Of a stretch of DNA of 30,280 nt, positions 999-22,844 are shown piece after piece. This stretch comes from an uncultured Bacteriovoracaceae bacterium. Its GTDB lineage: Bacteria > Bdellovibrionota > Bacteriovoracia > Bacteriovoracales > Bacteriovoracaceae. A program made the translations under genes and the position numbers. Positions within the stretch are counted from its first letter, which is position 1; each line of letters begins with the position of its first letter. The stretch lies in NCBI GenBank assembly GCA_964012805.1, contig CAXGUD010000042.1, forward strand, positions 1 through 30,280, given 5' to 3'. Below the pieces are notes generated by a model. That model did no database searches. It was not told where the DNA came from and saw only the letters and a program-made list of their open reading frames with translations.

Positions 999-1289
999 TT
1001 ATCTATACATACCTTCTAAAACCAGAAAAAAAGCATATGCTCCAGCACTTAAGGGAATTAGAGCGATAAATTTTAACCAAGCTTTTTCTTCCTTAAGGTG
1101 CATGTACCACCAACCAACAGCGAAAGCTTTAATTACCGCCAATAAGGTTAGTCCAACGCCCTTACCAAATTTGCCTAAAAAATGCATATCTGGAATATAC
1201 AATTCAAGGATAGTAAGAACACCTAAAGCAAAAAAGACCCACATGTATTCTTTGGTATGACCTTTGTATTCTTCAGAATGATCAGACAT
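999..1289 (-). CDS. cytochrome c oxidase subunit IV (prokaryotic COX4/CtaF family)
   Basis: 96 aa with three TM helices. Family patterns Y..VFFALGVLTILE and KAFAVGWWYMHLKEE; position in the cox operon. Confidence 0.85.
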   Translation of the reverse strand: MSDHSEEYKGHTKEYMWVFFALGVLTILELYIPDMHFLGKFGKGVGLTLLAVIKAFAVGWWYMHLKEEKAWLKFIALIPLSAGAYAFFLVLEGMYR

Positions 1290-1323
1290 ATTTACCTCAT
1301 TTTTATATCTTAGATATTAAATA

Positions 1324-1980
1324 CTAACTTCTATTTGCCAATAGTCCTACATCAACCATCATCTGGTTGAGACTAAATTTATTGGTTGCGTAATAACCCC
1401 TTACCCATCCATCTGAATCAACCAAAACAAACTTCTCACTGTGTACAATATCAAAAAGAGTGGAATCCTTTGAAGAGTGCTCAATGGGCACTTTAAAACC
1501 ACCTGTAATTAAATCTTTTAAGGAATCTTTAGGTCCTGTTAAGAATGACCAGACAAAAGGATTTGCCTGGAGCTTTCTTGCGTATTTGTATAGCACTTTA
1601 GGCGTATCTACTTCCGGATGAACAGAAAAAGTTGTAATAACAACCTTTTTATTTAATCCTCTAATTCTCTTTTGAATTTCCTGCAATTTTTTCATTTGCT
1701 TTGGACAAACAGTTGGACAAGAAGTGAACATAAAATTGGCTATATAGATACGACCCTTAAGTTCTTTTGAACCATAAGGTTTTCCAAAGCTATTTAATAG
1801 GTTGAACTCAGGTATCTTATAGAGCTTAGGAAGGGGAGGTGGAAGCTCTCTCTTAAATGACCTTGCCAAAGGATAAACAAACAAAAATGAAGCGAGGATT
1901 AGCCAAAAGGCTTTTTTACCTACAATTCTCTCCAAGAAATTATTTTCTCTTCTAAATTTTCTTAAACTTACTGCTTCCAT
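1324..1980 (-). CDS. sco: SCO1/SenC copper chaperone
   Basis: FTSCPTVCP (CxxxC), FSVHPEVDTP, conserved His in HSEKFVLVD, N-terminal TM anchor. Confidence 0.93.
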   Translation of the reverse strand: MEAVSLRKFRRENNFLERIVGKKAFWLILASFLFVYPLARSFKRELPPPLPKLYKIPEFNLLNSFGKPYGSKELKGRIYIANFMFTSCPTVCPKQMKKLQEIQKRIRGLNKKVVITTFSVHPEVDTPKVLYKYARKLQANPFVWSFLTGPKDSLKDLITGGFKVPIEHSSKDSTLFDIVHSEKFVLVDSDGWVRGYYATNKFSLNQMMVDVGLLANRS

Positions 1981-2009
1981 AACTTACTAACTTCTTATTC
2001 CTGATAATC

Positions 2010-2948
2010 TTATTTATTTTTTTCTATAGAATTAATAAATGCTTTCCTCTTAGCTTGATCTTTTTTAAAGCCCTGAAGATACCTAACGTAATACGCCAAC
2101 GCCCATATCTCATTATCTTCAATAACATCTTTCCAGCTCGGCATAGCAGCTCCGCCAGCACCTGCCAAAAGTCTCATATATATATCGTTGATTGCTATCC
2201 TCTCAGGATCCTTAAGACCTTTTTCTTCTTTCATTGTTCCAACAGATCTTAATTCATGCATAGTAAAATCTGGGGGCATTACTTTGTATCCATGCTCTCC
2301 CTCTTGTAGTTTTAATTTGTACATCTCTTCATCAAATTCTTCTATCGCTTCATCATTTATTTTCAAGGAAATTTTATTTAATTCTTCATGAGAAACATAA
2401 GCTCTGTGGCATGATTGGCATTGTGCCACGACATGATAAACTTCCTTTCCTTTTTCTATTGCAAAACTTTTATGAGATGCACCATATGGATCTTTACCAA
2501 CGACTAGTTTTTTTCCTAATTTTTTATCCTTACCTTCCCAGGCTTTTGGAGCGAAAGTTTTAATGTATTGGATAACATTATAGACTTGCTCTTTACTCAT
2601 ATCCCAAGGAAGCATCGCAGTTCCATTTAAACCATGCTTTATAATTTTATAAAGAGTATCATCGTGGGGAAGCTCACCAGCAACGACATGACCAAATTTG
2701 TAAATTCCAAGCTTAAAGTTCCTCGGAGGCGGGAATAAACCTTTTCCAGAAACTCCATTTCCGTCACCATTAAAACCATGACAGCTTACACAATAATCCA
2801 TATAAACTGATTTACCGTCATTGAGTTGATCAGCCGTTGCATAAACACCACCTGCGAAAAACTTTCCTTCATGAAAAGTACTCTCCTTACAAGAAAAAAG
2901 TAATGTCATTAAACAAATCAAAACAAAATAAGGCTTTATTTTCCTCAT
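2010..2948 (-). CDS. diheme cytochrome c lipoprotein
   Basis: Lipobox-like LLFSC. Two CxxCH motifs (CVSCH, CQSCH), each followed by a candidate distal Met (TAMLPW, AAMPSW). Confidence 0.88.
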   Translation of the reverse strand: MRKIKPYFVLICLMTLLFSCKESTFHEGKFFAGGVYATADQLNDGKSVYMDYCVSCHGFNGDGNGVSGKGLFPPPRNFKLGIYKFGHVVAGELPHDDTLYKIIKHGLNGTAMLPWDMSKEQVYNVIQYIKTFAPKAWEGKDKKLGKKLVVGKDPYGASHKSFAIEKGKEVYHVVAQCQSCHRAYVSHEELNKISLKINDEAIEEFDEEMYKLKLQEGEHGYKVMPPDFTMHELRSVGTMKEEKGLKDPERIAINDIYMRLLAGAGGAAMPSWKDVIEDNEIWALAYYVRYLQGFKKDQAKRKAFINSIEKNK

Positions 2949-2969
2949 AAAATTCCTCTTAAGTTAACC

Positions 2970-3563
2970 TCATAAAACAAAAAGGGTTATATAAATTAAA
3001 ACCCATACAACACCTAAAAAATGCCAAAAAGCACTTATGTTCCTAACAACGTTTTCTTTAAGCTCTTTTAATTCAGGAACCCTGAAAACCTTAGCAACTA
3101 ACCAAAGCTTTAGGATTACTGCAAGAACCATATGACCAACATGGGTCCAAGTAAAACCATAAATTAACGAAGCATATATTCCTGTACCTTGAAAAATACC
3201 CCTGTCTCTTAGGCTTTCCCACAAAGTAAATTGGGACCCGATGAAGCTAAAGCCTAGAATCAAAGATAACAAACCTACATACTTTGCTACTTTTTTTTCT
3301 CCTTTCTTTATCGACCTTTCCACTACCACCAGCGTAATACTACTCAAAACAATGAAAAGTGTGCTGAGTGATGGGATTCCTAAGCCAACTCTGTCCATAC
3401 CCATAGGTGGCCATTCTTGGGCATTAAATCTGAATATTGCATATCCTAGGAAAAAGACAGCAAAAAGCATCGTGAATGAGACGAGGGTAATAATCATAGC
3501 AATTGAGTTAGCTATATTCTTCCCCTCGTGATCTATGTTCATGGCACTTTCTTTAGCGACCAT
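2970..3563 (-). CDS. ctaE: heme-copper oxidase subunit III (short form), copy A
   Basis: Five TM helices, YGFTWTHVGH and FWHFLGVVW motifs, directly downstream of coxI. Confidence 0.88.
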   Translation of the reverse strand: MVAKESAMNIDHEGKNIANSIAMIITLVSFTMLFAVFFLGYAIFRFNAQEWPPMGMDRVGLGIPSLSTLFIVLSSITLVVVERSIKKGEKKVAKYVGLLSLILGFSFIGSQFTLWESLRDRGIFQGTGIYASLIYGFTWTHVGHMVLAVILKLWLVAKVFRVPELKELKENVVRNISAFWHFLGVVWVLIYITLFVL

Positions 3564-3598
3564 AACTTTAACCCACTTTGCCCTTTTTTCAAGTCTCG

Positions 3599-5329
3599 TT
3601 AACTAGTAACGAGCTCTTCGGTTTGATATTGAAAATCTTTCCCATCTTTTAGATTTGGGTTACCCAATTCGTGGGGGCCACACTTCACGACAGGAATATC
3701 TTTAAAGTTATAACTTGGAGCTGGAGAAGGAATTGTCCATTCCAAAGTACCAACTTTCCAAGGGTTTGCCACTGCCTTCTTTCCGTTCCAAACACTCCAT
3801 AAGAAGTTGAAGAGAAAGATAAACTGAGAGCCTCCAAGCAGTAGGGCGGAAATCGTGACAAACTCATTCATAGGAATCAATCGCCTTAACTCTTCGTAGT
3901 AAAAAGGGTTGTAGATTCTTCTATGCATCCCACCATACCCGATAAAAAGCATTCCCATAAAAACGCCGTTTATTCCAAGCATTGTTAGCCAAAAATGGAT
4001 CTTTCCCCAAAACTCACTCATCATGGTTCCAAACATCTTAGGCATCCAGTAGTATATACCAGCAAATCCACCTAGAAGAACAGAGGCTGCCATCGTGTAG
4101 TGAAAATGTCCCACAACAAAGTAAGTATCATGAAGATAAAAATCTGTTGTAGTTGTTCCAAGATAAAGACCCGTAAGTCCTCCAAGCCCAAAAACAAAAA
4201 CAACACCCAATGAGTAAAGCATCGGAGTATCAAACCTTATTGAACCTTTCCAAATTGTACCCAACCAATTCCCAAAAAAGATTGCTGAAGGAATCGAAAT
4301 GGTCATAGTCAGGGTCATAAACGATTGAGTTAAAAGAGGGCTCATTTGAGTCGTGAACATATGATGACCATATACAAGAATAGAAAGTACCGAAATTGAA
4401 ACCATCGATAATGCAGTTGCTTTAGCAGCAAAAGCAGGTTTTCTAGAAAAGAAAGAAAGAAGGTCTGAAACGATACCCCATGCTGGAAGAATCAAAATAT
4501 AAACTTCAGGGTGACCAAATATCCAAAAAACATGCTGATACAAAATTGGGTCTCCTGATCCACTTGTTGCAGCAGCTCCTGCCAGGAAAAAAGATGTTCC
4601 AAAGACCCTATCAAAAATTACAAGCAAACATCCTGCGCCCAATACAGGAACAAAAATCGCATTTAAAATGGCTGTCATCCATATACCCCATATTGTAAGA
4701 GGCATATCAAAGTAACCCATACCTGGAGCTCTTAAAGTGATAATCGTAGTGATATAATTAACAGCCCCAAGGATAGAGGAAATACCTATCGTAAAAATAG
4801 CCATATACCATAAAGTCTGACCTACCCCCGGGCTTCCAAAGGTGAGTGCTAATGTCGGATAGGATGTCCACCCCCCTGCTGCAGCTCCAAGAGGTGTGAA
4901 GAGGGCCGAAAGTAAAAGAGCCCCCGATATAAAGAAAAACCAATAAGAAAGCATATTCAATAACGGGAAAGCCATATCCCGACACCCAATCATAAGCGGT
5001 ATACAGAGGTTTCCAAACGCTCCGATCAAAAGTGGAGTAATTGCATAGAAGATCATTATCGTTCCATGCTGCGTAAAGAGCATTGCATACGTGTCTGGAG
5101 GCACAATTCCGTTAGTATGAGGAAATAAAATACTCCCCAAAATAGGAAAAGATTGCCCAGGATAGGCTAAAGTCCACCTAATTAGGAGCGCCATAATCCC
5201 ACCTACTCCCAAAAAGAATAGGCCTGACCAAAGAAATTGCTTGGCAATAACCTTGTGATCAAATGAGAATATATATTTTCCTAAAAAGGTTTTTGGTACC
5301 GGGTGCGCGTGCTGCTCAAAAAAAGCCAT
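3599..5329 (-). CDS. ctaD: cytochrome c oxidase subunit I, A1-type, lacking the K-channel Lys
   Basis: FTQHG, DMAFP, GHPEVY (H273/E275/Y277), GHHMF (H322/H323), HDTYFVVGHFHY and MHRR are all present. Helix VIII reads ISIPSAIFFGNW. Confidence 0.96.
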   Translation of the reverse strand: MAFFEQHAHPVPKTFLGKYIFSFDHKVIAKQFLWSGLFFLGVGGIMALLIRWTLAYPGQSFPILGSILFPHTNGIVPPDTYAMLFTQHGTIMIFYAITPLLIGAFGNLCIPLMIGCRDMAFPLLNMLSYWFFFISGALLLSALFTPLGAAAGGWTSYPTLALTFGSPGVGQTLWYMAIFTIGISSILGAVNYITTIITLRAPGMGYFDMPLTIWGIWMTAILNAIFVPVLGAGCLLVIFDRVFGTSFFLAGAAATSGSGDPILYQHVFWIFGHPEVYILILPAWGIVSDLLSFFSRKPAFAAKATALSMVSISVLSILVYGHHMFTTQMSPLLTQSFMTLTMTISIPSAIFFGNWLGTIWKGSIRFDTPMLYSLGVVFVFGLGGLTGLYLGTTTTDFYLHDTYFVVGHFHYTMAASVLLGGFAGIYYWMPKMFGTMMSEFWGKIHFWLTMLGINGVFMGMLFIGYGGMHRRIYNPFYYEELRRLIPMNEFVTISALLLGGSQFIFLFNFLWSVWNGKKAVANPWKVGTLEWTIPSPAPSYNFKDIPVVKCGPHELGNPNLKDGKDFQYQTEELVTS

Positions 5330-5400
5330 ACTAACAGTCTCCCTTTATCCGATCTAATCTTTACTTATATTTATTTAAGTTTTCCACAATTACAAAAATC

Positions 5401-6267
5401 TTAGCGTACTTCCCACTTCCAACCCCAATAAAGGTTTAAGTCTTCAGGATCATTAACTTCCATTGCCACTCTTTGAGCTTGTCCTAACCAACTCTCAAAG
5501 TCTTCTGGCGTATAAGTGGTTAATTTAGCTCCCATCATGTAATGGTGTGTTCCACACATTTCCGCACAAGCAATTGGCCACTTCCCTGCCTTATTTAGCT
5601 CCATCCAAATCCTCGAGATTCGACCAGGCATAGCATCAACCTTTCTTCTCGCGTTTGGTAGGAAAAAAGAATGAATAACATCTTTTGACGTTACTTGAAA
5701 TAGTAACTTTCTATTGATTGGAACTCTAAGGTCATTGACGGTTACAACATCATCTTGAGTATTGAAAACCTCATCTTTTCCTGCATATCTAAACTTCCAA
5801 ACCCATTGCTGAGCCATGACCTGAACCTTTAAGGGTTTCTCTTCTTCTTTAGGCCAATTTAAGAAAACGTTTCTTAAATCGTTGTTTGATATTGCGGAAA
5901 TTGTGGCGTCAATACCTATAAAAACCGCAACTCCGATAATGGTGACAGTCCAAATGTGAACTGGTTTATTCCCGTAGGTGTAAAGCGGTTTTTTATTTTT
6001 TTTGTGATGGTAAATAAAAGCAAAACCAAAAAGGCCTGCACAAACTAAAATGAAAAAGAAGAGGTTCATATAGGTCGTGTAGTTGAAGAGCCAATCGATA
6101 AGATGGCCGTTAACAGAAATATCCTCCGGGGGAACAGTAATATCCCAATAATTAGTACTTTTATAATCAGTACCGTCTTTTGCATTTGCTACAGAAAGCA
6201 TTAAAGATGTGGCGATCACACCCATTGATGAGACAATAAACTTAAAAATTCCAAATATTCCACTCAT
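5401..6267 (-). CDS. ctaC: cytochrome c oxidase subunit II (CuA)
   Basis: Signal peptide, two TM helices, QQWVWKFRY, DVIHSF and the CuA motif CAEMCGTHHYMM. No fused cytochrome c. Confidence 0.95.
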   Translation of the reverse strand: MSGIFGIFKFIVSSMGVIATSLMLSVANAKDGTDYKSTNYWDITVPPEDISVNGHLIDWLFNYTTYMNLFFFILVCAGLFGFAFIYHHKKNKKPLYTYGNKPVHIWTVTIIGVAVFIGIDATISAISNNDLRNVFLNWPKEEEKPLKVQVMAQQWVWKFRYAGKDEVFNTQDDVVTVNDLRVPINRKLLFQVTSKDVIHSFFLPNARRKVDAMPGRISRIWMELNKAGKWPIACAEMCGTHHYMMGAKLTTYTPEDFESWLGQAQRVAMEVNDPEDLNLYWGWKWEVR

Positions 6268-6358
6268 AAAACTTAGTCCTTAACGAGTTGACATACTTTT
6301 GTTTTAAATAGAAGAGAAAACTACCAGAGTTTATTTTATAATTAAATGGGTATTTTTT

Positions 6359-7285
6359 CTATTTAAAAAAAATCATTCCTCCTAGAAGAAGAGGGAGGTA
6401 TATGATTGATGCATAAAAATACATCTTCGCCCACTTCTTTAGTTTAACCCCTTCATCTTGGAAAAATAAACCTAGTGAACTTTGTATGATGAAAGGTATA
6501 TTAAGCGCCAAAGCGATCCACAAAAAGTGAGGCTTAGCTATGTTGAAATAGACAGGCAGGATAGAAATTAAGCCCAAAATAATCGTAAAAATAAAAATAT
6601 AAACTTTGGTAAGTCCCAAACCTTTTTGGTTAGGATAAACTTTAATATTTGCGCTCTCATAATCTTCCGCATGGTAAATTGAAATTGCCCAAAAATGAGG
6701 CAATTGCCAAATTAAAAGAACTGCAAAAAGACAATAAGCGAATACATCAATAACTCCTGTTACTGATGTCCAACCCATTAAAGGAGGCATAGCACCTGGA
6801 ATTGCCCCAACATAGACAGCGTATTCACTTTTTTGTTTCATAGGAGTGTAACTAAAAAGATATAAAACAGAAGCAACCAAACCAAGAACACAAGTAATCG
6901 GATTTACTGCTAAAAATAAGCCAACATGACCAATAGCTACAAGAAATATACCAAAAAAAAGTGCGTTATTAGGACTTAGTTTACCTGACGGAAGAACTCT
7001 TGCTCTTGTCCTTTCCATTTTAGAGTCAACATCCCTCTCAATAAAACAGTTGAGGGCACACGCACCTCCAACAATCATTGAAATAAAGAAAAGGGAATAA
7101 ATTGCATTCAAATAGTCTATAACTCCTGGAGCCATGATGAAGCCAACCAGACAAGTTGACATAACAAGCAAAGTCAACTTGGGTTTAGTGAGTTCAAAGT
7201 AATCCAAGAAAACTCCCCCCATACCCTTTGCTTTTAAATTTTCCCCAATTAATTTCAACGCCCTTATCTCCGCATAGCCTTTCAA
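6359..7285 (-). CDS. cyoE: protoheme IX farnesyltransferase (heme O synthase)
   Basis: LTKPK, ALNCFIERDVDSKMERTRARVLPSG, YTPMKQ, GAIPGAMPPLMGW and WQLPHFWAI. TTG start with GGGAG upstream. Confidence 0.95.
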   Translation of the reverse strand: MKGYAEIRALKLIGENLKAKGMGGVFLDYFELTKPKLTLLVMSTCLVGFIMAPGVIDYLNAIYSLFFISMIVGGACALNCFIERDVDSKMERTRARVLPSGKLSPNNALFFGIFLVAIGHVGLFLAVNPITCVLGLVASVLYLFSYTPMKQKSEYAVYVGAIPGAMPPLMGWTSVTGVIDVFAYCLFAVLLIWQLPHFWAISIYHAEDYESANIKVYPNQKGLGLTKVYIFIFTIILGLISILPVYFNIAKPHFLWIALALNIPFIIQSSLGLFFQDEGVKLKKWAKMYFYASIIYLPLLLGGMIFFK

Positions 7286-7562: not shown

Positions 7563-8654
7563 ATGAAAAAACCAGTTAATTATAAAGACTATCTTCAACT
7601 CGATAAAATTCTTGATGCTCAACACTGTAAAAGCAAAGAAGTTGGACAAGAGTGTCATGATGAAACATTGTTTATCATTGTTCACCAGGCCTATGAATTA
7701 TGGTTTAAACAAATTATCCACGAGCTAGATTCAATTATTAAGGTATTCACCCAACCCAAAATTCCTGATTATCAGATGTCACTTATAAGCTCGAGGCTTG
7801 AACGAGTTAATCAAATTCAGAAAGTCATTATGGAGCATTTGGTAATACTTGAAACTATGACGCCAATGGACTTCCTGGAGTTCAGAGACCATCTTATACC
7901 GGCATCAGGTTTTCAAAGCGTTCAATTTCGAACAATCGAAATAAAGCTCGGCTTAGGCCTCAAGAAAAGGAAAACTGACTTTGAAAACTTTATTTTAGGA
8001 AGACTTGCTCCTGAAGACAGAAACTTCCTTGTCGAGTTAGATAAATCACCTTCCTTATTTCAACTTATAGAAAAATGGTTGGAAAGAATACCTTTTATTC
8101 AAGAAGAACATTTTGACTTTTGGAGAGAGTTTCAAAAATCAGTAAATGAAATGTTAAAGACTGACAAAAAGTTTATTGAGGATAATTTAACTCTCCCTAA
8201 AGAACAAAAATTAATTCAACTTGAGGGCATTGAGGCGACCAAGGAAACTTTTCATTCCTTATTCGATTCAAAAAAGTTCCACTCCCTTAGAACAAATGGA
8301 AAGAATAGATTGTCACAAAAAGCGACTCTGGGAGCCCTTTTTATTTTACTTTATAGAGATGAACCAATCTTGTATCAACCTTTTAAAATTTTGAACTCAC
8401 TTATGGATATAGATGAAAATTTCATTGCATGGAGACACCGCCATGCCCTTATGGCGCTAAGAATGCTTGGAACAAAAATGGGAACAGGAGGATCCTCGGG
8501 TCACGAGTACTTAAAAACAGCCGCTGAAGAGAATAAAATATTTAATGATTTGTTTAATCTCTCAACCTTTCTTATCCCTAGATCAAAGCTTCCAGAACTT
8601 CCCGTTCAAATTAAAAAAGAGCTCAACTTTAATTTTTCTGGAGACCCCAAGTAA
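7563..8654 (+). CDS. kynA: tryptophan 2,3-dioxygenase (long, animal-like form)
   Basis: HDETLFIIVHQAYELWFKQ, MTPMDFLEFR, PASGFQSVQFR and WRHRH...RMLGTKMGTGGSSG. Confidence 0.96.
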   Translation: MKKPVNYKDYLQLDKILDAQHCKSKEVGQECHDETLFIIVHQAYELWFKQIIHELDSIIKVFTQPKIPDYQMSLISSRLERVNQIQKVIMEHLVILETMTPMDFLEFRDHLIPASGFQSVQFRTIEIKLGLGLKKRKTDFENFILGRLAPEDRNFLVELDKSPSLFQLIEKWLERIPFIQEEHFDFWREFQKSVNEMLKTDKKFIEDNLTLPKEQKLIQLEGIEATKETFHSLFDSKKFHSLRTNGKNRLSQKATLGALFILLYRDEPILYQPFKILNSLMDIDENFIAWRHRHALMALRMLGTKMGTGGSSGHEYLKTAAEENKIFNDLFNLSTFLIPRSKLPELPVQIKKELNFNFSGDPK

Positions 8655-8666
8655 GGAATTAAACTT

Positions 8667-10091
8667 TTAAAAATTAAAGCTTATATTATTTTTTTCAAGG
8701 TAGGGACTGATCCTTTCCTTGAAAAGCCTTTCTGCTTTACTTAAGCTCAGTTGATCCTTTGAGGTGAGGCCTTCGCTTAATTCATCAATCAACTTCTTTT
8801 GAATAATACCCAGCTGATAAGCGTGAGCGTAACCAATTAGACTATAAGTCACCATAGCATAACGGGACCTATAAAGGTCCGGAAAGGTTTGCTCTAGTTT
8901 ATTTTCAATTTGTTTTTTCAATAAAAAACTTGGATCTCCAACCTTATCCTTCATTTCATGAAAATTTTCTAAAGCCATATCAGCAATAGCATTGGCATGC
9001 TTAACTCTTTCGTCGGTAAATTGTTGAAAGACAGATTTCCAGTCATCTTGGTTTTTAGAAATAAGATCATCTAAAACGGTACAATCCTCAAAACCGCAAT
9101 TCATTCCCTGCCCAAAAAAAGGAACAATCGCGTGAGCAGCATCTCCAACCAAAAGAACTTTGTCTTGCAAATTCCAAGGATAACATTTAACTGTCCCCAA
9201 GGTTCCGACAGGATTGGCAAAAAAGTCTTCTTCCAAACCAGGCAGAACACCCAATGTATCAGAAAAATAATTCTGAAAAAAACCTTTCACATCCTCTTTA
9301 TTTTTTAACTCTTCAAAGTTTGGTTTTCCAGAATTGGAGTCTTTAGGTAAATATAAAGTCCCAGTGAAACTTCCCTTTAAATTTGCCAGAGTCATAAACA
9401 TGAAACTTCCGCGAGGCCAAATATGAAGAGAATCTTTGTCCATCACATAATTTCCAGATGAATCTGCAGGGACAAAAAACTCCTTGTAGCCAGATTCTAA
9501 TAAATCTACTTTTTCAATAAACTCAGAAGAATCAAACTTTTCAGGAAAAGATTTTTTTAAATAATCCATCATCTGCTTTCTACATAATGATCCCGCTCCA
9601 TCCGTTGCAAAAATATGGTCAATTTCATGGTTTTCTTCTTCATGATTTCTACTATGAAAAGTGTAAATATTTTTCTCAAAATCACAGTTTTTAACCTGCC
9701 TATTGAAATGAAATTTTACACCTTCTTTTTCAGCGATCGAGATAAGGGATTTGTTAAGAAGCGATCTCGATACTGAATAATTACATTCACTTTTATCTTT
9801 TCCGTAGGGTTGAAAAGTGAGATCTCCTTCTAAAGAATGCATCATCCTTCCAAAAACAGGAACTGTAATTTCCTTTAATTCATCCCAAAGCCCTAAGCGG
9901 CTTAAAGCATTGATTGCTCGGGAGGTTATAATTAAATTAATGGAGCGCCCTCCATCAACATCATCTTTCCTTATATCACCTCTCTTTTCAAAAACTGAGG
10001 CTTCAATCCCACGCCTTTTTAAAAAAATGGCCAACAAAGACCCAACCAGGCCACCACCGATAATTGCAAATCGCTTATTTTTTGTTTTCAC
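8667..10091 (-). CDS. kmo: kynurenine 3-monooxygenase
   Basis: GGGLVG FAD motif, GRSINL, LHIWPRGSFM and GDAAHAIVPFFGQGMNCGFED. The GTG start overlaps the kynU stop (GTGA). Confidence 0.94.
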   Translation of the reverse strand: MKTKNKRFAIIGGGLVGSLLAIFLKRRGIEASVFEKRGDIRKDDVDGGRSINLIITSRAINALSRLGLWDELKEITVPVFGRMMHSLEGDLTFQPYGKDKSECNYSVSRSLLNKSLISIAEKEGVKFHFNRQVKNCDFEKNIYTFHSRNHEEENHEIDHIFATDGAGSLCRKQMMDYLKKSFPEKFDSSEFIEKVDLLESGYKEFFVPADSSGNYVMDKDSLHIWPRGSFMFMTLANLKGSFTGTLYLPKDSNSGKPNFEELKNKEDVKGFFQNYFSDTLGVLPGLEEDFFANPVGTLGTVKCYPWNLQDKVLLVGDAAHAIVPFFGQGMNCGFEDCTVLDDLISKNQDDWKSVFQQFTDERVKHANAIADMALENFHEMKDKVGDPSFLLKKQIENKLEQTFPDLYRSRYAMVTYSLIGYAHAYQLGIIQKKLIDELSEGLTSKDQLSLSKAERLFKERISPYLEKNNISFNF

Positions 10092-11356
10092 AGATGATCC
10101 TTAAAAATTTGAACTAAACGATACACATCTTCAAAGTTATTGTAGAGAGGAACAGGTGTAACTCTAAAAATGTCTGGCTCCCTAAAGTCAAAAATAACTC
10201 CTTTCTTAGTAAGAGTATTTAATAAATTTTTTGATCCATTTGGAACCCTCAAGCAAAGCATACTTCCTCTTTCTTTTTCTGGAGTCACCACATGGCATTT
10301 TTCCCCGCAGTTTTCTTTTAAAAGGAATTGGAAGTAGGAGGTCAATTCATCACCTTTTTTTCTTAAGGCCTTCATTGTTGCTTTTTCAAAGAGCTCCATT
10401 GAAGCTCTAAGAGAAGCTAATTGAAAAATAGGTGGATTACTTAGCTGCCAAGATTCAGCATTTCCAATTGCTTTAAATTCGCGCTCCATTAAAAAGCGTC
10501 TTTCCTTATCGTGACCCCACCAGCCTTCAAAACGAGGAATCTTGTTGTCTCCATGATGATTTTCATGAACAAAACACCCGGCTAAACCTCCAGGCCCCGA
10601 GTTAAGGTATTTATAAGAACACCAAACAGCAAAGTCGACATTCCAATCATGAAGATTAAGAAGTAGGTTTCCAGCACCATGAGCTAAGTTAAATCCAGCC
10701 AGTGCACCTCTTTCGTGAGCTTTTTTTGTAATTGATTTAAAGTCAAAACATTGACCTGTTAAGTAGTTAACATTTCCAAGCATAACAAGGGCAAGCTCAT
10801 CGCCTAATTCATCAATTTTATCCAAAATATCTTGAGGACGAAGGGTTTCTTCACCCTCACGAGGAGCTAATTCAACGATGGCATCTTTTGGATTAAAACC
10901 ATGAAACTTAGCTTGAGAATCCACAGCATATTGATCTGAAGGAAAGGTATTTGGCTCAATCAGAATTTTGTAACGCTCCTTAGTCGGCCTATAAAAAGAA
11001 ACCATCATTAAATGAAGATTAACGGTAAGAGTGTTCATCACAACGACTTCTGAAGACTTTCCCCCAACAAGGTTGGCCATACTGTCAGTGAGAAGCTCAT
11101 GGTAAGAAAGCCATGGATGACTACTCTTGAAGTGTCCCTCTACACCGTATTTTGCCCAAGCATAACACTCGTCATTTATATATTCTTGAGCATTTTTAGG
11201 CATGAGCCCCAGAGAGTGACCTGCAAAATAAAGAACTTGCTCGTCAGAGTCTTCTTTTTTTGGAAAAGAAAAACTTTTCCTAAAGTGAGACAAGGGGTCA
11301 TTGTTATCTTTTGTCTTGGCAAAATCTATTGAAGTATCATTCATCAGAGAATTCAT
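10088..11356 (-). CDS. kynU: kynureninase (3-hydroxykynureninase type)
   Basis: YFAGHSLGL, MNTLTVNLH, FPSD, AHGAGN, PLP-Lys motif WCSYKYLNSGPG, GWWGH and SNPP. Confidence 0.95.
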   Translation of the reverse strand: MNSLMNDTSIDFAKTKDNNDPLSHFRKSFSFPKKEDSDEQVLYFAGHSLGLMPKNAQEYINDECYAWAKYGVEGHFKSSHPWLSYHELLTDSMANLVGGKSSEVVVMNTLTVNLHLMMVSFYRPTKERYKILIEPNTFPSDQYAVDSQAKFHGFNPKDAIVELAPREGEETLRPQDILDKIDELGDELALVMLGNVNYLTGQCFDFKSITKKAHERGALAGFNLAHGAGNLLLNLHDWNVDFAVWCSYKYLNSGPGGLAGCFVHENHHGDNKIPRFEGWWGHDKERRFLMEREFKAIGNAESWQLSNPPIFQLASLRASMELFEKATMKALRKKGDELTSYFQFLLKENCGEKCHVVTPEKERGSMLCLRVPNGSKNLLNTLTKKGVIFDFREPDIFRVTPVPLYNNFEDVYRLVQIFKDHL

Positions 11357-11374
11357 TTTTTAATTCCTCATTTT

Positions 11375-12157
11375 TTAATTTATTGAAAAACCCACTTCCC
11401 CAATTCCTTCCACCTTAAGAAGACAATTCATACCACTTTCCATCATAACAGCTGCTGTAGCTGCTCCAGCAAGAACAATTTGTCCTGCTTTCAAATTTAT
11501 GCCTCGAGAAGTCGCTAGGTGGCTCAACTCTACTAATGATTGAAAAGGATTCCCAGAAATATCTTTAGAAGACCCAACCTGGCTAAGTTCCCCATTAATA
11601 AACATTTCCATTTTTAAGTTTTCAAAATCTAATTTTTTGAAATCTTTCAACTCAGGACCCAAAACAAAATGGGAAGATGAAGCATTATCTGCAATAACAT
11701 CTTCTAAAGAAAAATATTTAAATTGGGTGTAACGGGAGTCCAAAACCTCTAACGCAGGATATACTGCGCTACAAGAATCTATGGCATCTTTAAGAGTTAA
11801 AGGAGATTCAATATCCCTCTTTATTAAAAAAGCGATTTCAGGCTCTACTTTTGGATGAATCATTCCTTCCATTGAAAAGCTGCCTTCATTAGATATTTCC
11901 ATCTTGTCGGTCAAAAACCCATAAAGTGGCGAATCTAGGTCCATTTGTTCTCTTTTGGCTTTTGAGGTTAAACCCATTTTATAACCTCTTAGGAACTCTC
12001 CTTTGTCAAAGCGGTGTTTAGACCCCATATCCTGGATTTTGTAGGCATCCTCAACAGAGAAATCTTTAAACTCTTTGCTTATCTGCTCGATAGGGCTTGC
12101 TTCAAGCCTAGCGTCAGTCAATTTTCCTGCCAATTCAGTTCTTTGAGACTCCTCCAC
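11375..12157 (-). CDS. FAH-family 4-oxalocrotonate decarboxylase (DmpH/NbaG-like); 2-keto-4-pentenoate hydratase possible
   Basis: GYKMGLTSKAKREQM, HPKVEPEIAF, EVLDSRY and DVIADNASS. GTG at 12157 is preceded by AAGGAG; the ORF track starts at TTG 12172. Confidence 0.8.
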   Translation of the reverse strand: MEESQRTELAGKLTDARLEASPIEQISKEFKDFSVEDAYKIQDMGSKHRFDKGEFLRGYKMGLTSKAKREQMDLDSPLYGFLTDKMEISNEGSFSMEGMIHPKVEPEIAFLIKRDIESPLTLKDAIDSCSAVYPALEVLDSRYTQFKYFSLEDVIADNASSSHFVLGPELKDFKKLDFENLKMEMFINGELSQVGSSKDISGNPFQSLVELSHLATSRGINLKAGQIVLAGAATAAVMMESGMNCLLKVEGIGEVGFSIN

Positions 12158-16579: not shown

Positions 16580-17218
16580 TCACAGAAGGTAAATAAACGT
16601 AAAAACAAGAATCCAGACTAAGTCGACAAAGTGCCAAAACAAGCCTGCCAACTCTAACTGGTTATAATTTCCATTATCAAAAACACCCTTATGGGCCAAG
16701 TTATACATTTGACATAAATAAAGCGTTCCCATCAAAACATGCAGTCCATGGAATCCAGTAACTGAGTAGAACGTAGACATGAAGTGATGATATGTGACTC
16801 CTTTATACACAAAAGGCGCTCCAAACTTCATATTTTGCATGTAGAGGATGGTGTATTCATAAACTTGAAGACCTAAGAAAATAAATCCTCCTAAAATAGT
16901 TAAGAGAAGCCACTTCTTCATCTTATCTCTATTCTTCATTCTACATGCGTCAATTGACAGAACCATTGTCACCGAACTGCAAATAAGAAGAAAGGTCATA
17001 AAAGCTGGTAAATCAACTCCACCCAAAGCTTCAATTGGGTTAGGCCAATCTTTAGTAGCCCTTAAAATCGCATAAGCTATAAGTAAACCTGCAAAGCTCA
17101 TCGCATCTGTAACAAGAAAAATCCACATGGCTATTTTGCCTGGCGTAGCTTTCCCAAACTGAGGGTCTTCTGGGTACGTTAGCATTTCAGCTGGTCTATT
17201 ATTTGCGTGAGCGCCCAT
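16580..17218 (-). CDS. ctaE: heme-copper oxidase subunit III (short form), copy B
   Basis: MWIFLVTDAMSF, TFLLICSSVTMV, QVYEY, TGFHGLHV and GLFWHFVDLVW. Confidence 0.92.
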   Translation of the reverse strand: MGAHANNRPAEMLTYPEDPQFGKATPGKIAMWIFLVTDAMSFAGLLIAYAILRATKDWPNPIEALGGVDLPAFMTFLLICSSVTMVLSIDACRMKNRDKMKKWLLLTILGGFIFLGLQVYEYTILYMQNMKFGAPFVYKGVTYHHFMSTFYSVTGFHGLHVLMGTLYLCQMYNLAHKGVFDNGNYNQLELAGLFWHFVDLVWILVFTFIYLL

Positions 17219-17241: not shown

Positions 17242-20154
17242 TTACTCTTTATCGAGTCCCTTTGGAAATTTATCATACCCTATAGATTGCAAATATTTAA
17301 CTAGAGCGTTCATTTGTTTTTCTGGGTCTCCACCAAAAATAGTATCCTCCAAACTTTCTCCTCCTTCCCAGAAGGATGGCATTCTTGTGCCAGGCATAAT
17401 AGTCTGAGGATTTTCAAACCATCTTTTTATCCAAGTTGGTCTTAACCTCAACTTGGAGTAGTGGAGATTAGGAGCTTGAGCTTCTTCACTATTAAAGCCT
17501 CCTGAGTGACAAGAAACACACTCTAAAGCATTCCAAAGTTTTTTAGCTCCTTCCTCTTCTCCAGGCAACCATTCAACTTTTCCGACCCTCTTTACAAAAG
17601 TTTGTCTATTGGCCTTGTATTGGAACCCGGTTACAATTTTATTTATCTGATCATTAGTATAATGATAACTCGGCATTCTAACCTTTAGCCAGGGTCTTAA
17701 GGTATGAACATTGTTTAAGAAATAGTGGAACCAATTGGCACGCACTCTCCATCCTTCACCGTAAAGTCTAGGTGGCCCCTCATTTATATCGTCTTCATAC
17801 AAGGATAGTATATCTCCGCCCCAGAAGTTTTCACCATTTTCGTCATTATATTCGTCTGTCATTTTATGATTAATTTTATGACACCCAATACAATTAAAAT
17901 GGTTAACAACCTTCATGCCTTCAGCCCACTTAGATTCTTCTGGACTTAGGTTTTTTCTTCCTTGAGGAGGAACATAGTCACTTACTTGACCTAAAAGAGC
18001 AGTTGTCATGGAAACAGATTCCTCTTTGGTCATATGGAAGTTCGGCATCATAAGTAGGTCTTTAAAGGCTTTATCTGTCCCTCTATCCCATCTTCTTGGG
18101 TTTAATAAATGAGCTTCAATCCAGGCTTCTCTAGTGTGTTCTACATCATATTCATGTCCAAAGCCGAATTGGTGGACTGCCTTTGAACCAACATTTGTAA
18201 GTTCAGGACCAGGATAGGCTCCACCCAAGGCAGGCCGCTTGAATCCTTCTATGTTGTGGCAAGCATAGCACCCATATTTATTTATTGAACGGCGACCAAG
18301 CTCAACAGTTCTCTCATGATCGCTCATTTTAGCCAGTCTGGCACGTGCCTTCTCTTCAGTATCAAAGGCTGAAAAGTAATCCTTAACAAGAAGATCATCT
18401 CGAACTTTTTTATCTAACTTTTCAAACTTAAGCTCCTCAAACTTTTTATTTTTGAGTGAAAGGATGTAAGCCGTCATATCATTAGCTTCTCTATCAGTTA
18501 GTCTAAAAGAAGGCATAATGGTATCTTTTTGATAGTGTTTAGGTTTCTTAAGCCATGTAACTAGCCAATCACCATTAAGTTTTGATCCAGACCCTTGAAG
18601 CCACGGACCTGCGTAAGCCTTAACTTTCTTCGAAGCTTTTTCCAGACCATCTACGCCGTGGCAGGATAAACAACCGACTTCATAAATAAGCTTTTTTCCT
18701 TTTTCTGGATCACCGCCAGTATACTTCTTGTAGGGTCTATACTCTTTAGATTTATCATATAAATACTCGGCCATAGCGTTAACTTCAGCAATGTTTTTAA
18801 CCATATGCTTTGGCTGCTTATTATTATCTAAATTAAAAAACTGCGGCATATTGGCGTGCTCATTAAAGCTTTTTGGTGCCCATACCCAGTTTTTAATAAA
18901 CTCCTTACTAACTTTGGAGGCGATTTTTGTTAGACTCGGTCCAGGACTTCTTTTGTGCTCCCATCCTTTTATTTTATGGCAACCATAGCAGCCATATTGT
19001 TCAATTTTTCTCCAGCCCTTATTAAGGGTAATTGAACCAGGTATTGCCTCTACGCCCTTATGACATTTGACACAACCAGCTTCAAAGTGCCTTTTAGGAA
19101 ACATTGGCTGAGGAACTTTATGAGGCGGGTGCCAGTTGTATTTCTTTGCCCATTCCTTAGCTTGCTCAGGAGAGTTAGGCGTATGTGAAACTGATTGGAA
19201 ATCATGAACTCTATGCCCTTGACCCTGGTGACAACTCGTACAACCCATCTTTTTTAGTGAGTGTGGTGAATCACTTCCAGCAAATAAATGGAGCCTTGGA
19301 TGAGTCGTAAATGGCTGAGGCTGATCTTCGTAGCCAGGTTTATCGATAAAGGTATGGCACGTGTGGCACCTATCTACTTTGGGAACCTTTTGGAAGTATA
19401 AATCGTCTTTTAAGTTCGGTAAGTGGACCTGCTGAATCTTTATTGTTGGATCTAGCCAGTCGATAATTGGAGCATTTCTAAGTAGCCATACTGGGTTTGT
19501 TAAAGTGTCAGTCTTTTTCTCAGCCATAAGAAGAAGCTTCTTCTTCATGAGCATCTTACCCATTTCTGATTTGACCTTGGTCACTGATTCCGCAAGCCTT
19601 AACAATTTTGTATCGGCAATCTTTTTTTCTGCAGCTATCGCCTTGAGTTTATCTTTCGAATCAGCAAAACCTGCTTTATAGGTTTTAAGCTTTTTCAATA
19701 ATTTTTCAGCTTTCAGCTTGTCCTTAAGTTTACCCGACTCAAGATAATGGGACTGTGCTATCTCATAGTTAAACGTAGTGGCAGATACATTCGCATTAAA
19801 ATCTCCATTAATCATAGTTTGGACTTTAAAACGCTTATTAATATCTGCGATCTCTTCATTTACCTTATCAATCTCTTCTTGATTTAAATCAACAGCCTTT
19901 TGATTAAGAACTAGATCTTTTTCCAACTGAGCTAGCTTCTTTTTATCGATTTTCTTCTCTGCTTCAAGAATATCTTTTTTTATTTTTTCTTTCTTGATGT
20001 CTTGGGCTTTAATTTGCCACCGCTTCCAGGGACGCATATAGTCCTCTAGAAACATCCAGCCTACTGTCACTAAGAGTAAAAAGCTCAGAAAAGCAAAAAC
20101 TTTGTTGAGCTTTTTCATATCATAGGCCATTCCTGGCTCATGCTTTTTTGTCAT
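17242..20154 (-). CDS. membrane-anchored octaheme cytochrome c of the Rieske/cytochrome b complex
   Basis: N-terminal TM helix, long Lys/Glu-rich coiled coil and 8 CxxCH motifs (CHTCH, CTSCH, CVKCH, CYGCH, CLSCH, CYACH, CIGCH, CVSCH). Confidence 0.9.
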   Translation of the reverse strand: MTKKHEPGMAYDMKKLNKVFAFLSFLLLVTVGWMFLEDYMRPWKRWQIKAQDIKKEKIKKDILEAEKKIDKKKLAQLEKDLVLNQKAVDLNQEEIDKVNEEIADINKRFKVQTMINGDFNANVSATTFNYEIAQSHYLESGKLKDKLKAEKLLKKLKTYKAGFADSKDKLKAIAAEKKIADTKLLRLAESVTKVKSEMGKMLMKKKLLLMAEKKTDTLTNPVWLLRNAPIIDWLDPTIKIQQVHLPNLKDDLYFQKVPKVDRCHTCHTFIDKPGYEDQPQPFTTHPRLHLFAGSDSPHSLKKMGCTSCHQGQGHRVHDFQSVSHTPNSPEQAKEWAKKYNWHPPHKVPQPMFPKRHFEAGCVKCHKGVEAIPGSITLNKGWRKIEQYGCYGCHKIKGWEHKRSPGPSLTKIASKVSKEFIKNWVWAPKSFNEHANMPQFFNLDNNKQPKHMVKNIAEVNAMAEYLYDKSKEYRPYKKYTGGDPEKGKKLIYEVGCLSCHGVDGLEKASKKVKAYAGPWLQGSGSKLNGDWLVTWLKKPKHYQKDTIMPSFRLTDREANDMTAYILSLKNKKFEELKFEKLDKKVRDDLLVKDYFSAFDTEEKARARLAKMSDHERTVELGRRSINKYGCYACHNIEGFKRPALGGAYPGPELTNVGSKAVHQFGFGHEYDVEHTREAWIEAHLLNPRRWDRGTDKAFKDLLMMPNFHMTKEESVSMTTALLGQVSDYVPPQGRKNLSPEESKWAEGMKVVNHFNCIGCHKINHKMTDEYNDENGENFWGGDILSLYEDDINEGPPRLYGEGWRVRANWFHYFLNNVHTLRPWLKVRMPSYHYTNDQINKIVTGFQYKANRQTFVKRVGKVEWLPGEEEGAKKLWNALECVSCHSGGFNSEEAQAPNLHYSKLRLRPTWIKRWFENPQTIMPGTRMPSFWEGGESLEDTIFGGDPEKQMNALVKYLQSIGYDKFPKGLDKE

Positions 20155-20236
20155 TCTTTCAACCCTTTTCCCAATTTAGAACTTTATTTTTAAAGTTTAT
20201 CCACACAGTAATAATCTAAAATCATCTAAATCTTGC

Positions 20237-21316
20237 CTACAAGTTTAGCTCGAACTCTGGCATTGCAATCAAGTACTTTAAACTGAATAGCCATCTAAGC
20301 ACCATTTTAATCGGTAAACTCAACATCCCAAGAGCAAGGAATATTAATATAAAGTACCTTATATAACCTATACCTCTAATGAGTTGCTTCCCTTTGTTCG
20401 TGAACATAAACGCGTACGGAAGAACAAACTGGTAAACACCAGCCACTAAAATTCCAGGAAACTCGCGAATAAAAATATTTGAAGGCAAAGCCATATTAAA
20501 CCACTTAATCCAGAAAAATTCTGAAAGGTTAACGTTGTTTTCAGCTACAACCTTGTGAAAATCCCAGTATTCAAATGGTCCGTAAAAAGTCCAGTTGGGC
20601 CCTCTAAGAAAAGTTCCAACAATAATAAGGAATATCCAAAGAACTAGCCAACCATACGACCATAAAAAGATGGCCATTTTCCTCTCAGCAAAAGTGTAAT
20701 AACCGTTCCCTTTAGGGTTTGTATCAATGTAAGGCATCGCCATAAGACCCACAATAATAAGGACTGGGAGCACAACACCGGCCATCCAGGGGTCAAAGTA
20801 AACTAGCATTTCTTGTAAACCTAAAAAGTACCAAGGAGCTTTGGCTGGGTTAGGTGCCCAAGTAGGGTTGGCTGGCTCTTCAAGTGGCGCTTTGAACACA
20901 ATTGCCCAAACCACAAGAAAGACAGTACAGCCAATAATAGCAAATAATTCAGTGTAAACCAGATTAGGCCAGCACCACACTTTCTCTCGCTCTTCAGGAG
21001 TTGCTTCTATCGGTACATCCCCAGCCTCAATCCTCTGGTCATTAACAGAAGCCTTATACAAAGAAAGCCACTGGAAGTAGACGAGCATAACAACCAAAAT
21101 ACTTATTGGGATATTATCAGGCCACAAGATGATGGCGAGAAAGTTGGGGTCAGTACAGGCCCAACCAAATACCGCCAAACTTATTACTGAAAACCAAACC
21201 AGAAATTTCTTTGTACCAACAAAATGGTAATACTTGTACATGAGCACAAATAGAATTGTAACTAAAGGAAAGGAGATAATAGGGTCTGCAAGTTTATTGA
21301 GAAATTCTTTTATCAT
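20237..21316 (-). CDS. petD: cytochrome b C-terminal / subunit IV-like protein with extra TM helices
   Basis: VWCWPNLV, APLEEPANPTWAPNPAKAPWYFLGLQE (PEWY-equivalent) and MPYID. Follows the cytochrome b gene. Confidence 0.85.
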   Translation of the reverse strand: MIKEFLNKLADPIISFPLVTILFVLMYKYYHFVGTKKFLVWFSVISLAVFGWACTDPNFLAIILWPDNIPISILVVMLVYFQWLSLYKASVNDQRIEAGDVPIEATPEEREKVWCWPNLVYTELFAIIGCTVFLVVWAIVFKAPLEEPANPTWAPNPAKAPWYFLGLQEMLVYFDPWMAGVVLPVLIIVGLMAMPYIDTNPKGNGYYTFAERKMAIFLWSYGWLVLWIFLIIVGTFLRGPNWTFYGPFEYWDFHKVVAENNVNLSEFFWIKWFNMALPSNIFIREFPGILVAGVYQFVLPYAFMFTNKGKQLIRGIGYIRYFILIFLALGMLSLPIKMVLRWLFSLKYLIAMPEFELNL

Positions 21317-21372
21317 TTTTTAGCCTCTAAATTAAACTCATGACTAATTTTTTAATTAAACAATTACAACCT

Positions 21373-22164
21373 CTATAAAGGAGCAGATATACCGCCGTCT
21401 TTTCTAATTCTCCAAAAGTGAACTGCCATCAAGACAGAAGCCACAAGAGGAATGAATACGCAATGAAGTATGTAAAATCTAAGAAGCGCTGGTTCACCAA
21501 CGAAACGTCCCGCTAATAACTGAAACCGAACATCATTCTTGTCAGATACCATAACGAAATCACCAATTTGCGCCAACATTGCTCCTGGACCACCGTGACC
21601 TAGGAAAGGAGTTGCCTTCGCCATGTTTGCACCAACAGTAATCGCCCAAATAGCTAGCTGATCCCAAGGAAGTAGATACCCTGTAAAGGAAAGTAGTAGG
21701 GTTAAAGTCAAAAGCAAAACCCCAACACCCCAATTAAACTCTCTAGGTGGTTTATAAGATCCAGTTAAGAAAACACGCATCATATGCAGCCAGGTTGTAA
21801 TAACCATTGCGTGAGCTCCCCATCTGTGAATTTCCCTCATTATTCCCAAGGGCACATGCTCTCTCAAAGCAATGATGTCATTCCAAGCATACTCAGCAGT
21901 AGGCCTGTAGTAAAACATCAATAGAACACCAGTTACGGTGAGAGCCAAAAAAATAAAGAACGTTAATCCACCCATGCACCAAGTGTAACCGAGTTGAACA
22001 CCTGACTTTTTTAATTTGATTGGGTGAAGGTGTAAAAAAACGTTACCAGCAATAATCGCGGCCCTATTTCTAGAGTTATCAGGTGGACCGTGTCGAAAAA
22101 TCGATTTCCACACCTGTGTTTCTCTAACTTTTTGAGCAAAACCCTCTATACCTTTTCCAGCCAT
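21373..22164 (-). CDS. petB: cytochrome b6-like (N-terminal cytochrome b) with heme c_i Cys
   Basis: WCMGG, heme-ligand pairs IHRW...WLHM and ILHC...AVHF, YKPPREFNW and SFTGYLLPWDQ. Confidence 0.94.
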   Translation of the reverse strand: MAGKGIEGFAQKVRETQVWKSIFRHGPPDNSRNRAAIIAGNVFLHLHPIKLKKSGVQLGYTWCMGGLTFFIFLALTVTGVLLMFYYRPTAEYAWNDIIALREHVPLGIMREIHRWGAHAMVITTWLHMMRVFLTGSYKPPREFNWGVGVLLLTLTLLLSFTGYLLPWDQLAIWAITVGANMAKATPFLGHGGPGAMLAQIGDFVMVSDKNDVRFQLLAGRFVGEPALLRFYILHCVFIPLVASVLMAVHFWRIRKDGGISAPL

Positions 22165-22201
22165 AACCGAGTCCTTAAAAAAAATTTGTTTCCTATAATT
22201 T

Positions 22202-22705
22202 TTATACTGGGATAAAAGAGTCAGGATGATCCCATTGACCCTTCTCCTCTCTATATATTTTCGTTTTATCCACCTTGATTTGACCCTCAGGAGTCAGACC
22301 TATCTTATACCTTTCCAAAGGTCTCGGTGCAGGACCTTCAAAGTTAATCCCATTGGCGTAATAACCTGACCCATGGCAAGGGCACTTAAATTTTCTTTCT
22401 GCGGGAAGCCAGTTAGGAATACAGCCGAGATGAGTGCAGATGTTTGAGAGAGCAAAAAGTTTCCCTTCTAACCTTACAATCCAGACACCATATATTTCTT
22501 TCCACCTTTCATCCACGCCTTCAGCATAATCAGCGGTTCCACCTGCAATAAAGTCCATCTCTGGTTCAAAAACTACGTTTGGGTAAGAAAAGCGAAATGC
22601 AAGGCCTAAGAAACCGGCGCAAGCTGCAGTAAATGTTACCCAACCAACAGTAAGATAGCTGAAAAACTCTCTTCGATTTAGACTTGTTTTGGTGTTGTCA
22701 CTCAT
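22202..22705 (-). CDS. petC: Rieske 2Fe-2S protein with Tat signal
   Basis: Twin-arginine LNRREFF, boxes CTHLGC and CPCHGSGY, and GPAPRPL. ATG at 22705 has GAGG upstream; the ORF track starts at 22720. Confidence 0.95.
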   Translation of the reverse strand: MSDNTKTSLNRREFFSYLTVGWVTFTAACAGFLGLAFRFSYPNVVFEPEMDFIAGGTADYAEGVDERWKEIYGVWIVRLEGKLFALSNICTHLGCIPNWLPAERKFKCPCHGSGYYANGINFEGPAPRPLERYKIGLTPEGQIKVDKTKIYREEKGQWDHPDSFIPV

Positions 22706-22844
22706 GAACTTTAACCTCAAATATTAATGTTTAAATGGAAAAAGGCCCCATGATCCGTTTCCATAAAAAAAAGGACAGCATTTCAATTTTTATTTGCCCA
22801 CAAACAAAAAAAGAACAAGCAAGTAATCGTTCCACACAAACCGA

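Follow-up and report, generated by a model that had tools for sequence, protein, structure and literature searches.

The cox operon in a 30,280-nucleotide stretch of DNA from an uncultured Bacteriovoracaceae bacterium (GenBank assembly GCA_964012805.1, contig CAXGUD010000042.1, positions 1 to 30,280 of the forward strand; this whole stretch is called the window below) encodes an A1-type heme-copper oxidase in which subunit I has phenylalanine at the site of the K-channel lysine, K362, and subunit II lacks the glutamate at the channel entry, while the D-channel is largely retained. Subunit I is encoded by coxI (3599..5329, 576 aa) and the CuA subunit by coxII (5401..6267, 288 aa), both of them, like every cox gene and residue located below, on the minus strand. 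From the residues that changed along with the lysine we suggest, at a probability of roughly 0.4, that a lysine-free path has been rebuilt at the old K site, in which hydroxyl residues and a carboxylate of subunit II would replace the lysine-gated K-channel. The Lys-less trait itself is already known as a sequence classification, in print since 2020-2021 in the preprint and supplements cited below. What we add are candidate compensating residues (Ser345, Thr305 and Trp284 of CoxI and Asp120 of CoxII) and evidence against the enzyme being a dispensable paralogue.

The residue equivalences of CoxI were obtained from its alignment to E. coli CyoB, whose numbering we take to be the same as that of R. 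sphaeroides at the mapped sites. K362 corresponds to F351 (codon TTT, 4277..4279), T359 to S348 (4286..4288), which keeps the K-channel hydroxyl, N365 to N354 and S299 to S288. The same alignment pairs H284 with H273, H333/H334 with H322/H323, H419/H421 with H408/H410 and R481/R482 with R470/R471, and it maps E286 to E275, Y288 to the cross-link tyrosine Y277 (4499..4501), D135 to D118 and N124/N142/N207 to N107/N125/N191. HMMER alignments to solved mycobacterial CoxI also place the helix VIII lysine column at F351, and so the phenylalanine that a first-pass annotation of this DNA had read at the K362 site is found in both alignments; the cross-link tyrosine, the histidine ligands and the arginine pair that it listed as retained are confirmed by the CyoB mapping. 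All six histidine ligands (H88, H273, H322, H323, H408 and H410) are present together with Y277 of helix VI, which is kept in 211/211 clade members. In an AlphaFold2 (AF2) model with a mean predicted local distance difference test (pLDDT) score of 83, residues 331-359 form one unbroken helix, and the model compares with A-family structures at a query TM-score (TMq) of 0.81-0.85. No lysine or arginine occurs in residues 273-292, 304-323 and 333-359 in any of the 120 close homologues; a neighbouring lysine that fills the K362 site, which the first-pass annotation had raised as a possible objection, is thus ruled out by membrane spans of helices VI-VIII that are free of basic residues. The sister lineage has one basic residue there, at 335, where helix VIII starts on the P-side.

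The missing lysine is a property of a clade. The 120 highest-ranking CoxI homologues, which are 77-99% identical and include the window's own cluster, have Phe at residue 351 in 118 cases, Leu in 2 and Lys in none. Among 99 more matches, to a sister lineage and retrieved with a Marinimicrobia-labelled protein as the query, the residue is Phe in 92, Leu in 5 and Met in 2. In a sample of the phylum, 24 of the 26 genomes of the host's own family contain a match at 74-79% identity, with Lys in 0/24, and a second family gave 14/14 matches at 58-64% identity, with Phe in all 11 that were inspected. Contigs of the DNA runs X5 and X6, neither of which is flagged as a possible source, span 4277-4279 without a difference, and 18 of the 20 listed strain differences across coxI and coxII are synonymous. 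Contigs from RNA libraries overlap parts of coxI and coxII other than codon 351 and do not demonstrate transcription. Since the homologues have no lysine and the DNA-run contigs are unchanged, a sequencing error or a strain-private change, against which a check of the reads had been advised, is ruled out, and the earlier view of a natural variant in an intact operon stands.

The homologue records carry the names Bacteriovoracaceae, Halobacteriovorax, Omnitrophota and Marinimicrobia; matches in the ESM Atlas were generic COX1 clusters only. In a 48-row tree calculated after removal of the helix VIII columns (a quick tree with no bootstrap), the 20 rows from these homologues form one clade with a Shimodaira-Hasegawa-like approximate likelihood ratio (SH-aLRT) support of 100; the Lys-bearing Bacteroidota and two further Lys-less groups join it in a polytomy. 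The loss of the lysine is clade-wide, and the window CoxI is nested among loci with the names Halobacteriovorax and Bacteriovoracaceae (SH-aLRT 96-99). The claim that K362 is nearly invariant in the A family was overstated: the lysine is missing from 52 of 139 scorable representatives, drawn from 150 at 50% identity (11 unscored) in a sample that is enriched for divergent sequences.

Several other kinds of Lys-less oxidase were observed in these comparisons. Two more Lys-less A1 groups in the same phylum (L118-L125 and L139) have Ile, Val or Leu at 362 and a Glu or Asp in TM2, the second transmembrane helix of CoxII; L122 and L139 have Phe at the T359 position as well. The sister family f3 (L107-L117) has Asn at D396 and D401 in 10 and 11 of 11 loci, respectively, and His at 389, and a second Asp in CoxII TM2 is frequent there; D396 and D401 are presumably the Asp positions of the Mg site and the propionate region. 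Divergent members of the wider clade that shares W284 (P0340, P0343, P0346, P0353, P0362, P0369, P0391, P0397 and P0439) lack both the Lys at K362 and the Asp at D132, and going by their sequences, whose quality is unchecked, they may be without both canonical channels; some of them have Gln or Ala for E286, and the cross-link Tyr is kept. A further type has Gln at the K362 site with Ala356 mostly kept (P0409, P0411, P0415, P0426, P0427, P0434, P0440, P0446, P0457, P0463, P0486 and L140), and its members are mostly ~840 aa long, the size of a I+III fusion. A plasmid search for this type returned matches below 60% identity.

In CoxII, no Asp or Glu occurs between residues 96 and 119, in agreement with the reported absence of the entry glutamate. 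The equivalence of H104 with E101 that accompanied this report is one of two possible registers; with the C-terminal end of TM2 as the anchor, T109 takes the place of E101 and H104 that of H96. The entry glutamate is missing in either register, and both remain compatible with the AF2 model, in which TM2 is a helix of residues 101-135. Inside this helix lies Asp120 (5908..5910), which is invariant in 120/120 CoxII homologues, as are the CuA-region residues H199, C234, E236, C238, H242 and M245. In the C-anchored register, an acid at -11/-12 is present in 58/58 Lys-less loci from three groups and in 0/67 Lys-bearing loci, and all 67 Lys-bearing loci have an acid at -22, the place of E101. Asp120 falls near L112 of R. 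sphaeroides in this register, and at residue 117, closer to the periplasm, in the N-anchored one. The L112 face of the R. sphaeroides subunit we take to touch helix VIII and the farnesyl tail of heme a3. From its conservation and distribution, Asp120 is a strong candidate for a compensating residue, as the first-pass annotation had proposed.

Beyond Asp120, TM2 remains polar, with T/S124, S127 and N128. This would fit a supply of reductive-phase protons from the periplasm, along the polar face of TM2 to Ser345 and Ser348 and on to Tyr277, at the cost of less charge separated per O2. Two observations point the same way: another acid lies four residues P-ward in 3 F-clade loci and in L122 and L139, and helix VIII has a glutamate, one turn above Ser356, in 10 of 39 representatives with a hydrophobic residue at 362. 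However, the second acid lies N-ward elsewhere (in 10 F-clade loci, and at -19 in 6/6 f5 loci), and an open path of this kind could leak protons and would waste energy in what is sometimes the sole oxidase. We regard a periplasmic supply as unlikely.

In CoxI, the residues that are fixed across the clade (211 members) and hardly ever seen in 74 Lys-bearing relatives include W284 at the F295 position (4478..4480), T305 at the M316 position (4415..4417), where it faces K362 across the channel, S345 at the A356 position (4295..4297), F352, N223, D289 and T412. W284, S345, N223 and T412 each occur in 211/211 clade members and T305 in 209/211; S345 and T305 are each found in <=5% of the Lys-bearing relatives. 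In a molecular dynamics study, A356 is one corner of the volume taken as the K-channel, whose width is measured from M316 to K362 (PMC10341450, in the sections consulted). Tyr320 (4370..4372, the W331 position) is specific to the lineage of the window; the suggestion that it takes over from the lysine was rejected for a necessary compensator, because Trp occupies the position in 74 of 80 sister-lineage proteins, all of them Lys-less. S308 and S316 were likewise rejected as markers of lysine loss, being common in Lys-bearing relatives.

These last two residues matter for the classification of Degli Esposti et al. 2021, by which the enzyme would use a cbb3-like KC-channel on helix VII (D289, T305, S308 and S316). 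Their supplementary table, consulted in part, scores Halobacteriovorax as 'KC-channel' from these positions (PMC8239418), and T305 is indeed specific to the clade. However, S308 is Ala or Cys in 50 of the 120 close homologues, Lys-bearing Bacteroidota have Ser at the S308 and S316 positions as well (66/68 and 43/68), position 301 is not Ser, the helix VII Tyr (Y255 in the 2021 table) is Ser here, and the same table scores Bacteriovorax stolpii merely as 'hybrid'. A KC-channel thus appears improbable, slightly more so than a periplasmic supply.

In favour of a rebuilt K site over plain decay, the enzyme has retained S288, S348 and N354, and the clade has acquired fixed polar residues where the molecular dynamics study defines the K-channel. 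On this reading, electrons would pass from a bc complex to a c-type cytochrome and on to CuA. The D-channel would carry the pumped protons and the chemical protons of the oxidative phase, as usual, and the one or two protons of the reductive phase would enter near Asp289, Ser288 and Thr305, cross the Phe351 position via water and reach Tyr277 via Ser348 and the new Ser345. Asp120 of CoxII is predicted beside helix VIII, where it could act as a relay or as an electrostatic partner.

Alternatively, the K-channel may be sealed by Phe351, Phe352 and Trp284, and the D-channel may supply all chemical and pumped protons; Ser345 and Asp120 of CoxII would then only tune the surroundings of Tyr277 and heme a3 or the packing of subunits I and II, and the active-site gate may be readjusted through Asn223 and Thr412. 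This is a tentative second choice, possible and less probable than a rebuilt path. The D-channel residues D118, N107, N125, S128 and E275 are invariant in 211/211 clade members and N191 is kept in 210/211, subunit I has no ionisable residue between D289 and Y277, the entry glutamate is gone in both registers of CoxII, and N223 and T412 are fixed in the clade too. The retention of the D-channel asserted in the first-pass annotation holds for D118, N107, N125, N191 and E275, and fails for the tyrosine equivalent to Y33 (Y33/Y35/Y61 in the several numberings), which is F32 here; Phe stands there too in 65 of the 68 relatives from Bacteroidota that have the lysine. The D-channel of model enzymes, however, does not take over from the K-channel during the reductive phase (PMC7196763 and PMC10341450, in the sections consulted; the former also describes the role of the K-channel in the reductive steps). 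The gain of the fixed hydroxyls T305 and S345 would be unexpected for a dead channel, and D132 is lost in several other Lys-less representatives, including some in the wider W284 clade, so that loss of the lysine need not always rest on the D-channel.

Several points weigh against a rebuilt path. The bulk of F351, F352 and W284 could block the route, and the published consensus is that K-channel delivery requires K362 (PMC10341450, same sections). The placement of Asp120 hinges on the uncertain register of CoxII, and the three groups with a CoxII acid lie in one unresolved polytomy and are perhaps not independent. S299 (S288 here) is lost in many other Lys-less lineages, with Ser or Thr in 17/45. 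Most other genomes of the family hold extra PF00115 genes, so the enzyme need not be fast. Finally, the link between positions 362 and 356 comes down to few independent events. In a 148-row tree, from which short fragments were dropped and to which 16 rows of our own were added, Ser or Thr at 356 occurs in 45/45 rows with a hydrophobic residue at 362 and in 1/90 Lys rows, and the column ranked top in the scan; this amounts to 5 independent differing pairs, all in the same direction (p 0.06), and to 4 pairs (p 0.125) when the tree was rebuilt with IQ-TREE on 91 rows, after thinning and removal of 8 long branches. The association is suggestive and not significant. Variants with Gln at 362 mostly retain Ala356.

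A broader proposal is that the A family has repeatedly escaped K362 by one convergent recipe, in which Ala356 becomes Ser or Thr and a membrane carboxylate, from TM2 of subunit II or from helix VIII, completes a hitherto undescribed lysine-free proton path to the catalytic tyrosine. We put this forward as a doubtful but possible generalisation from the alignments. The helix VIII glutamate mentioned above stands at position 353 (for example in P0363, P0407 and P0416), and it possibly stands in for the CoxII acid. If the recipe holds, Bacteriovoracaceae would be cultivable organisms whose respiration depends solely on a lysine-free-path enzyme, and model oxidases mutated at K362 could be rescued by the same changes. 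Neither the mid-TM2 acid nor the Ser/Thr356 association was found in the parts of Degli Esposti et al. 2021 (PMC8239418) that were consulted; in the supplements, A348, A356 and 'aspart' do not occur, and the table has no column for A348/A356 or for a TM2 acid.

The oxidase is very likely a functional aa3-type O2 reductase, judging from gene content, because coxI is the only PF00115 match in a host genome (G000) that is 100% complete, in 130 contigs, and in which no cytochrome bd was found. A search of this genome for alternative oxidase (AOX) gave no match, but its control was silent too. A set of 61 family genomes includes 8 in which PF00115 matches only once and bd is absent, and the Lys-less enzyme is present in 7 of the 8, the single-contig genome G177 among them. 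CtaA, CyoE and Sco are all encoded in the host genome, and the mostly synonymous strain differences noted above (18 of 20) also favour a working enzyme. A slow or non-respiratory enzyme (an O2 scavenger, or one that handles NO) rather than the main terminal oxidase would be compatible with the extra PF00115 genes in most of the family and with the slow turnover of K-channel mutants of model enzymes, such as yeast T316K at 15% of wild type (PMC7196763, in the section consulted). Against it stand the 7 genomes, the host's included, in which it is the sole PF00115 gene and bd is absent, the retained cross-link tyrosine and three CuB histidines, and the bc complex in the same window. We judge such a role very improbable.

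The operon has the gene order cyoE-coxII-coxI-coxIII-cytochrome c-sco-coxIV on the minus strand (999-7285). Besides the two subunits described, it contains cyoE/ctaB for heme O synthase (6359..7285; TIGR01473 above cut-off), a short first copy of coxIII (2970..3563), a c-type cytochrome that is a candidate electron donor by inferred role (2010..2948), a Sco/SenC copper chaperone (1324..1980) and coxIV (999..1289). Heme A synthase CtaA is encoded outside the operon, by a 370-aa open frame at G000:C1:155028-155927; CtaA-CtaB fusions have been described for this family (Degli Esposti et al. 2021, PMC8239418, in the part consulted). A second minus-strand cluster, ~9 kb away (16580-23730), encodes a HEAT-repeat protein, and within 17242..22720 a Rieske protein, a cytochrome b split into halves of 263 and 359 aa and a 970-aa multi-heme cytochrome c, which together make up a bc-type complex; a second coxIII (16580..17218) stands at its end. 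This complex is the likely upstream electron source of the oxidase. Between the two clusters lies a kynurenine-pathway block (7563-12172) with tryptophan 2,3-dioxygenase, an FAD monooxygenase (likely kynurenine 3-monooxygenase), kynureninase and an FAA-hydrolase-family gene.

Why the A family requires a second channel gated by a lysine has long been asked, and nearly all work on the question has relied on crippling mutants. The necessity of K362 becomes directly testable with a natural enzyme in which both the lysine and the entry glutamate are missing and the D-channel is kept, which is the only heme-copper oxidase detected in complete genomes and which has cultured relatives. The first-pass annotation had left room for a subfamily already characterised; this is so as far as the supplements of PMC8239418 catalogue it in silico as K-channel-less, and we found no experimental or biochemical study of the Lys-less subclade in the open literature, subscription journals not being covered. 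Term look-ups in PMC6431628 and PMC5492636 returned nothing on this trait.

By the A1 definition of Pereira and Sousa (PMC3084760, Table 2), the window enzyme has the histidine ligands and the Tyr-I of helix VI. The D-channel set Asp124, Asn113/131/199, Ser134 and Glu278 is represented by D118, N107, N125, N191, S128 and E275, the Ser193 region holds S185, mapped only via E. coli T201, and Tyr35 is F32. The K-channel residues Thr351, Ser291 and Tyr280 appear as S348 (Ser for Thr), S288 and Y277. Because Lys354 is F351, the enzyme is not a canonical A1 oxidase, yet it is A1-like by fold and phylogeny. O2 reduction coupled to proton pumping is also part of the definition; here this function is presumed from the sole-oxidase status of the enzyme. 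Nitric oxide reductases, which lack the cross-link Tyr and have a Glu ligand (PMC11214002, in the part consulted), differ from it in that Y277 is present in 211/211 clade members.

The closest known system is the 'Oligoflexia' A1 subclade of Degli Esposti et al. 2021 (PMC8239418, Supplementary Table S1 and Fig. S7, consulted in part), in which the A1 COX1 proteins of Halobacteriovorax (WP_114706215) and Bacteriovorax stolpii (WP_102242033) have K354=F, with E78 of COX2 lost, and whose K-channel is given as 'no, KC'. The residues at their columns are the same (Y280, S291, K354=F, T351=S, S357=N, E292=D, G, T, S/A and S, with no Glu at E78): the pattern Y-S-F-S-N-D-G-T-(S/A)-S reads Y277, S288, F351, S348, N354, D289, position 301, T305, S308 and S316 here, where position 301 is Ala, and Gly in 108/120 homologues. 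The names of the 75-80% identical homologues indicate the same family, and the clustering with Bacteriovorax/Halobacteriovorax COX1 is seen via named Halobacteriovorax and Bacteriovoracaceae loci. The window enzyme thus differs from this subclade only as a new genome, and the KC reading of the 2021 authors is weakly supported here.

Compared with the canonical A1 aa3 oxidases of R. sphaeroides (1M56) and P. denitrificans (1AR1), and with the K362M mutant (3OM3), the window enzyme has the same fold (TMq 0.82-0.85), HPEVY motif, D-channel, Tyr-His cross-link site and CuA ligands. It differs by K362 to Phe, A356 to Ser, M316 to Thr, F295 to Trp and Y33 to Phe, by the missing E101 of subunit II, and by a CoxII TM2 with an Asp and a segment ~6 residues longer. 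The nearest Lys-bearing relatives found here are the split a-III A1 oxidases of Bacteroidota (Flavobacterium type), which are 43-49% identical, belong to the same larger clade and share F32, S348 and often S308/S316; unlike the window enzyme, they have Lys in 68/68 and the entry acid in 61/61, and lack Ser356 and the mid-TM2 acid.

The K-less oxidases of iron oxidisers (the Acidithiobacillus rus-operon Cox and the Ferrigenium straubiae Cox) resemble the window enzyme in a hydrophobic residue at K354, loss of E78 in subunit II and a kept D-channel (the preprint of Degli Esposti et al., bioRxiv 10.1101/2020.03.01.968255; 10.64898/2026.01.22.701106, both in part), and the 2026 preprint calls the consequence of this loss in F. 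straubiae unclear. Unlike the window enzyme, they belong to a separate A2-like lineage according to their authors, and adaptation to acid is no explanation for the missing lysine here, where the hosts are marine heterotrophs or predators that are neutrophilic. The B-family (ba3) and C-family (cbb3) oxidases have Lys-free Ser/Thr/Tyr channels that resemble the mode we propose for the K site, but they lack the D-channel that is intact here, and their defining channel residues are not those of the window enzyme: F351, S348 and S288 stand where the B family replaces Lys/Thr/Ser by Thr/Ser/Tyr, and S316, A/G301, T305, the variable S308 and D289 where the C family has Y255, S240, S244, H247 and Y227 (published residue sets, consulted in part).

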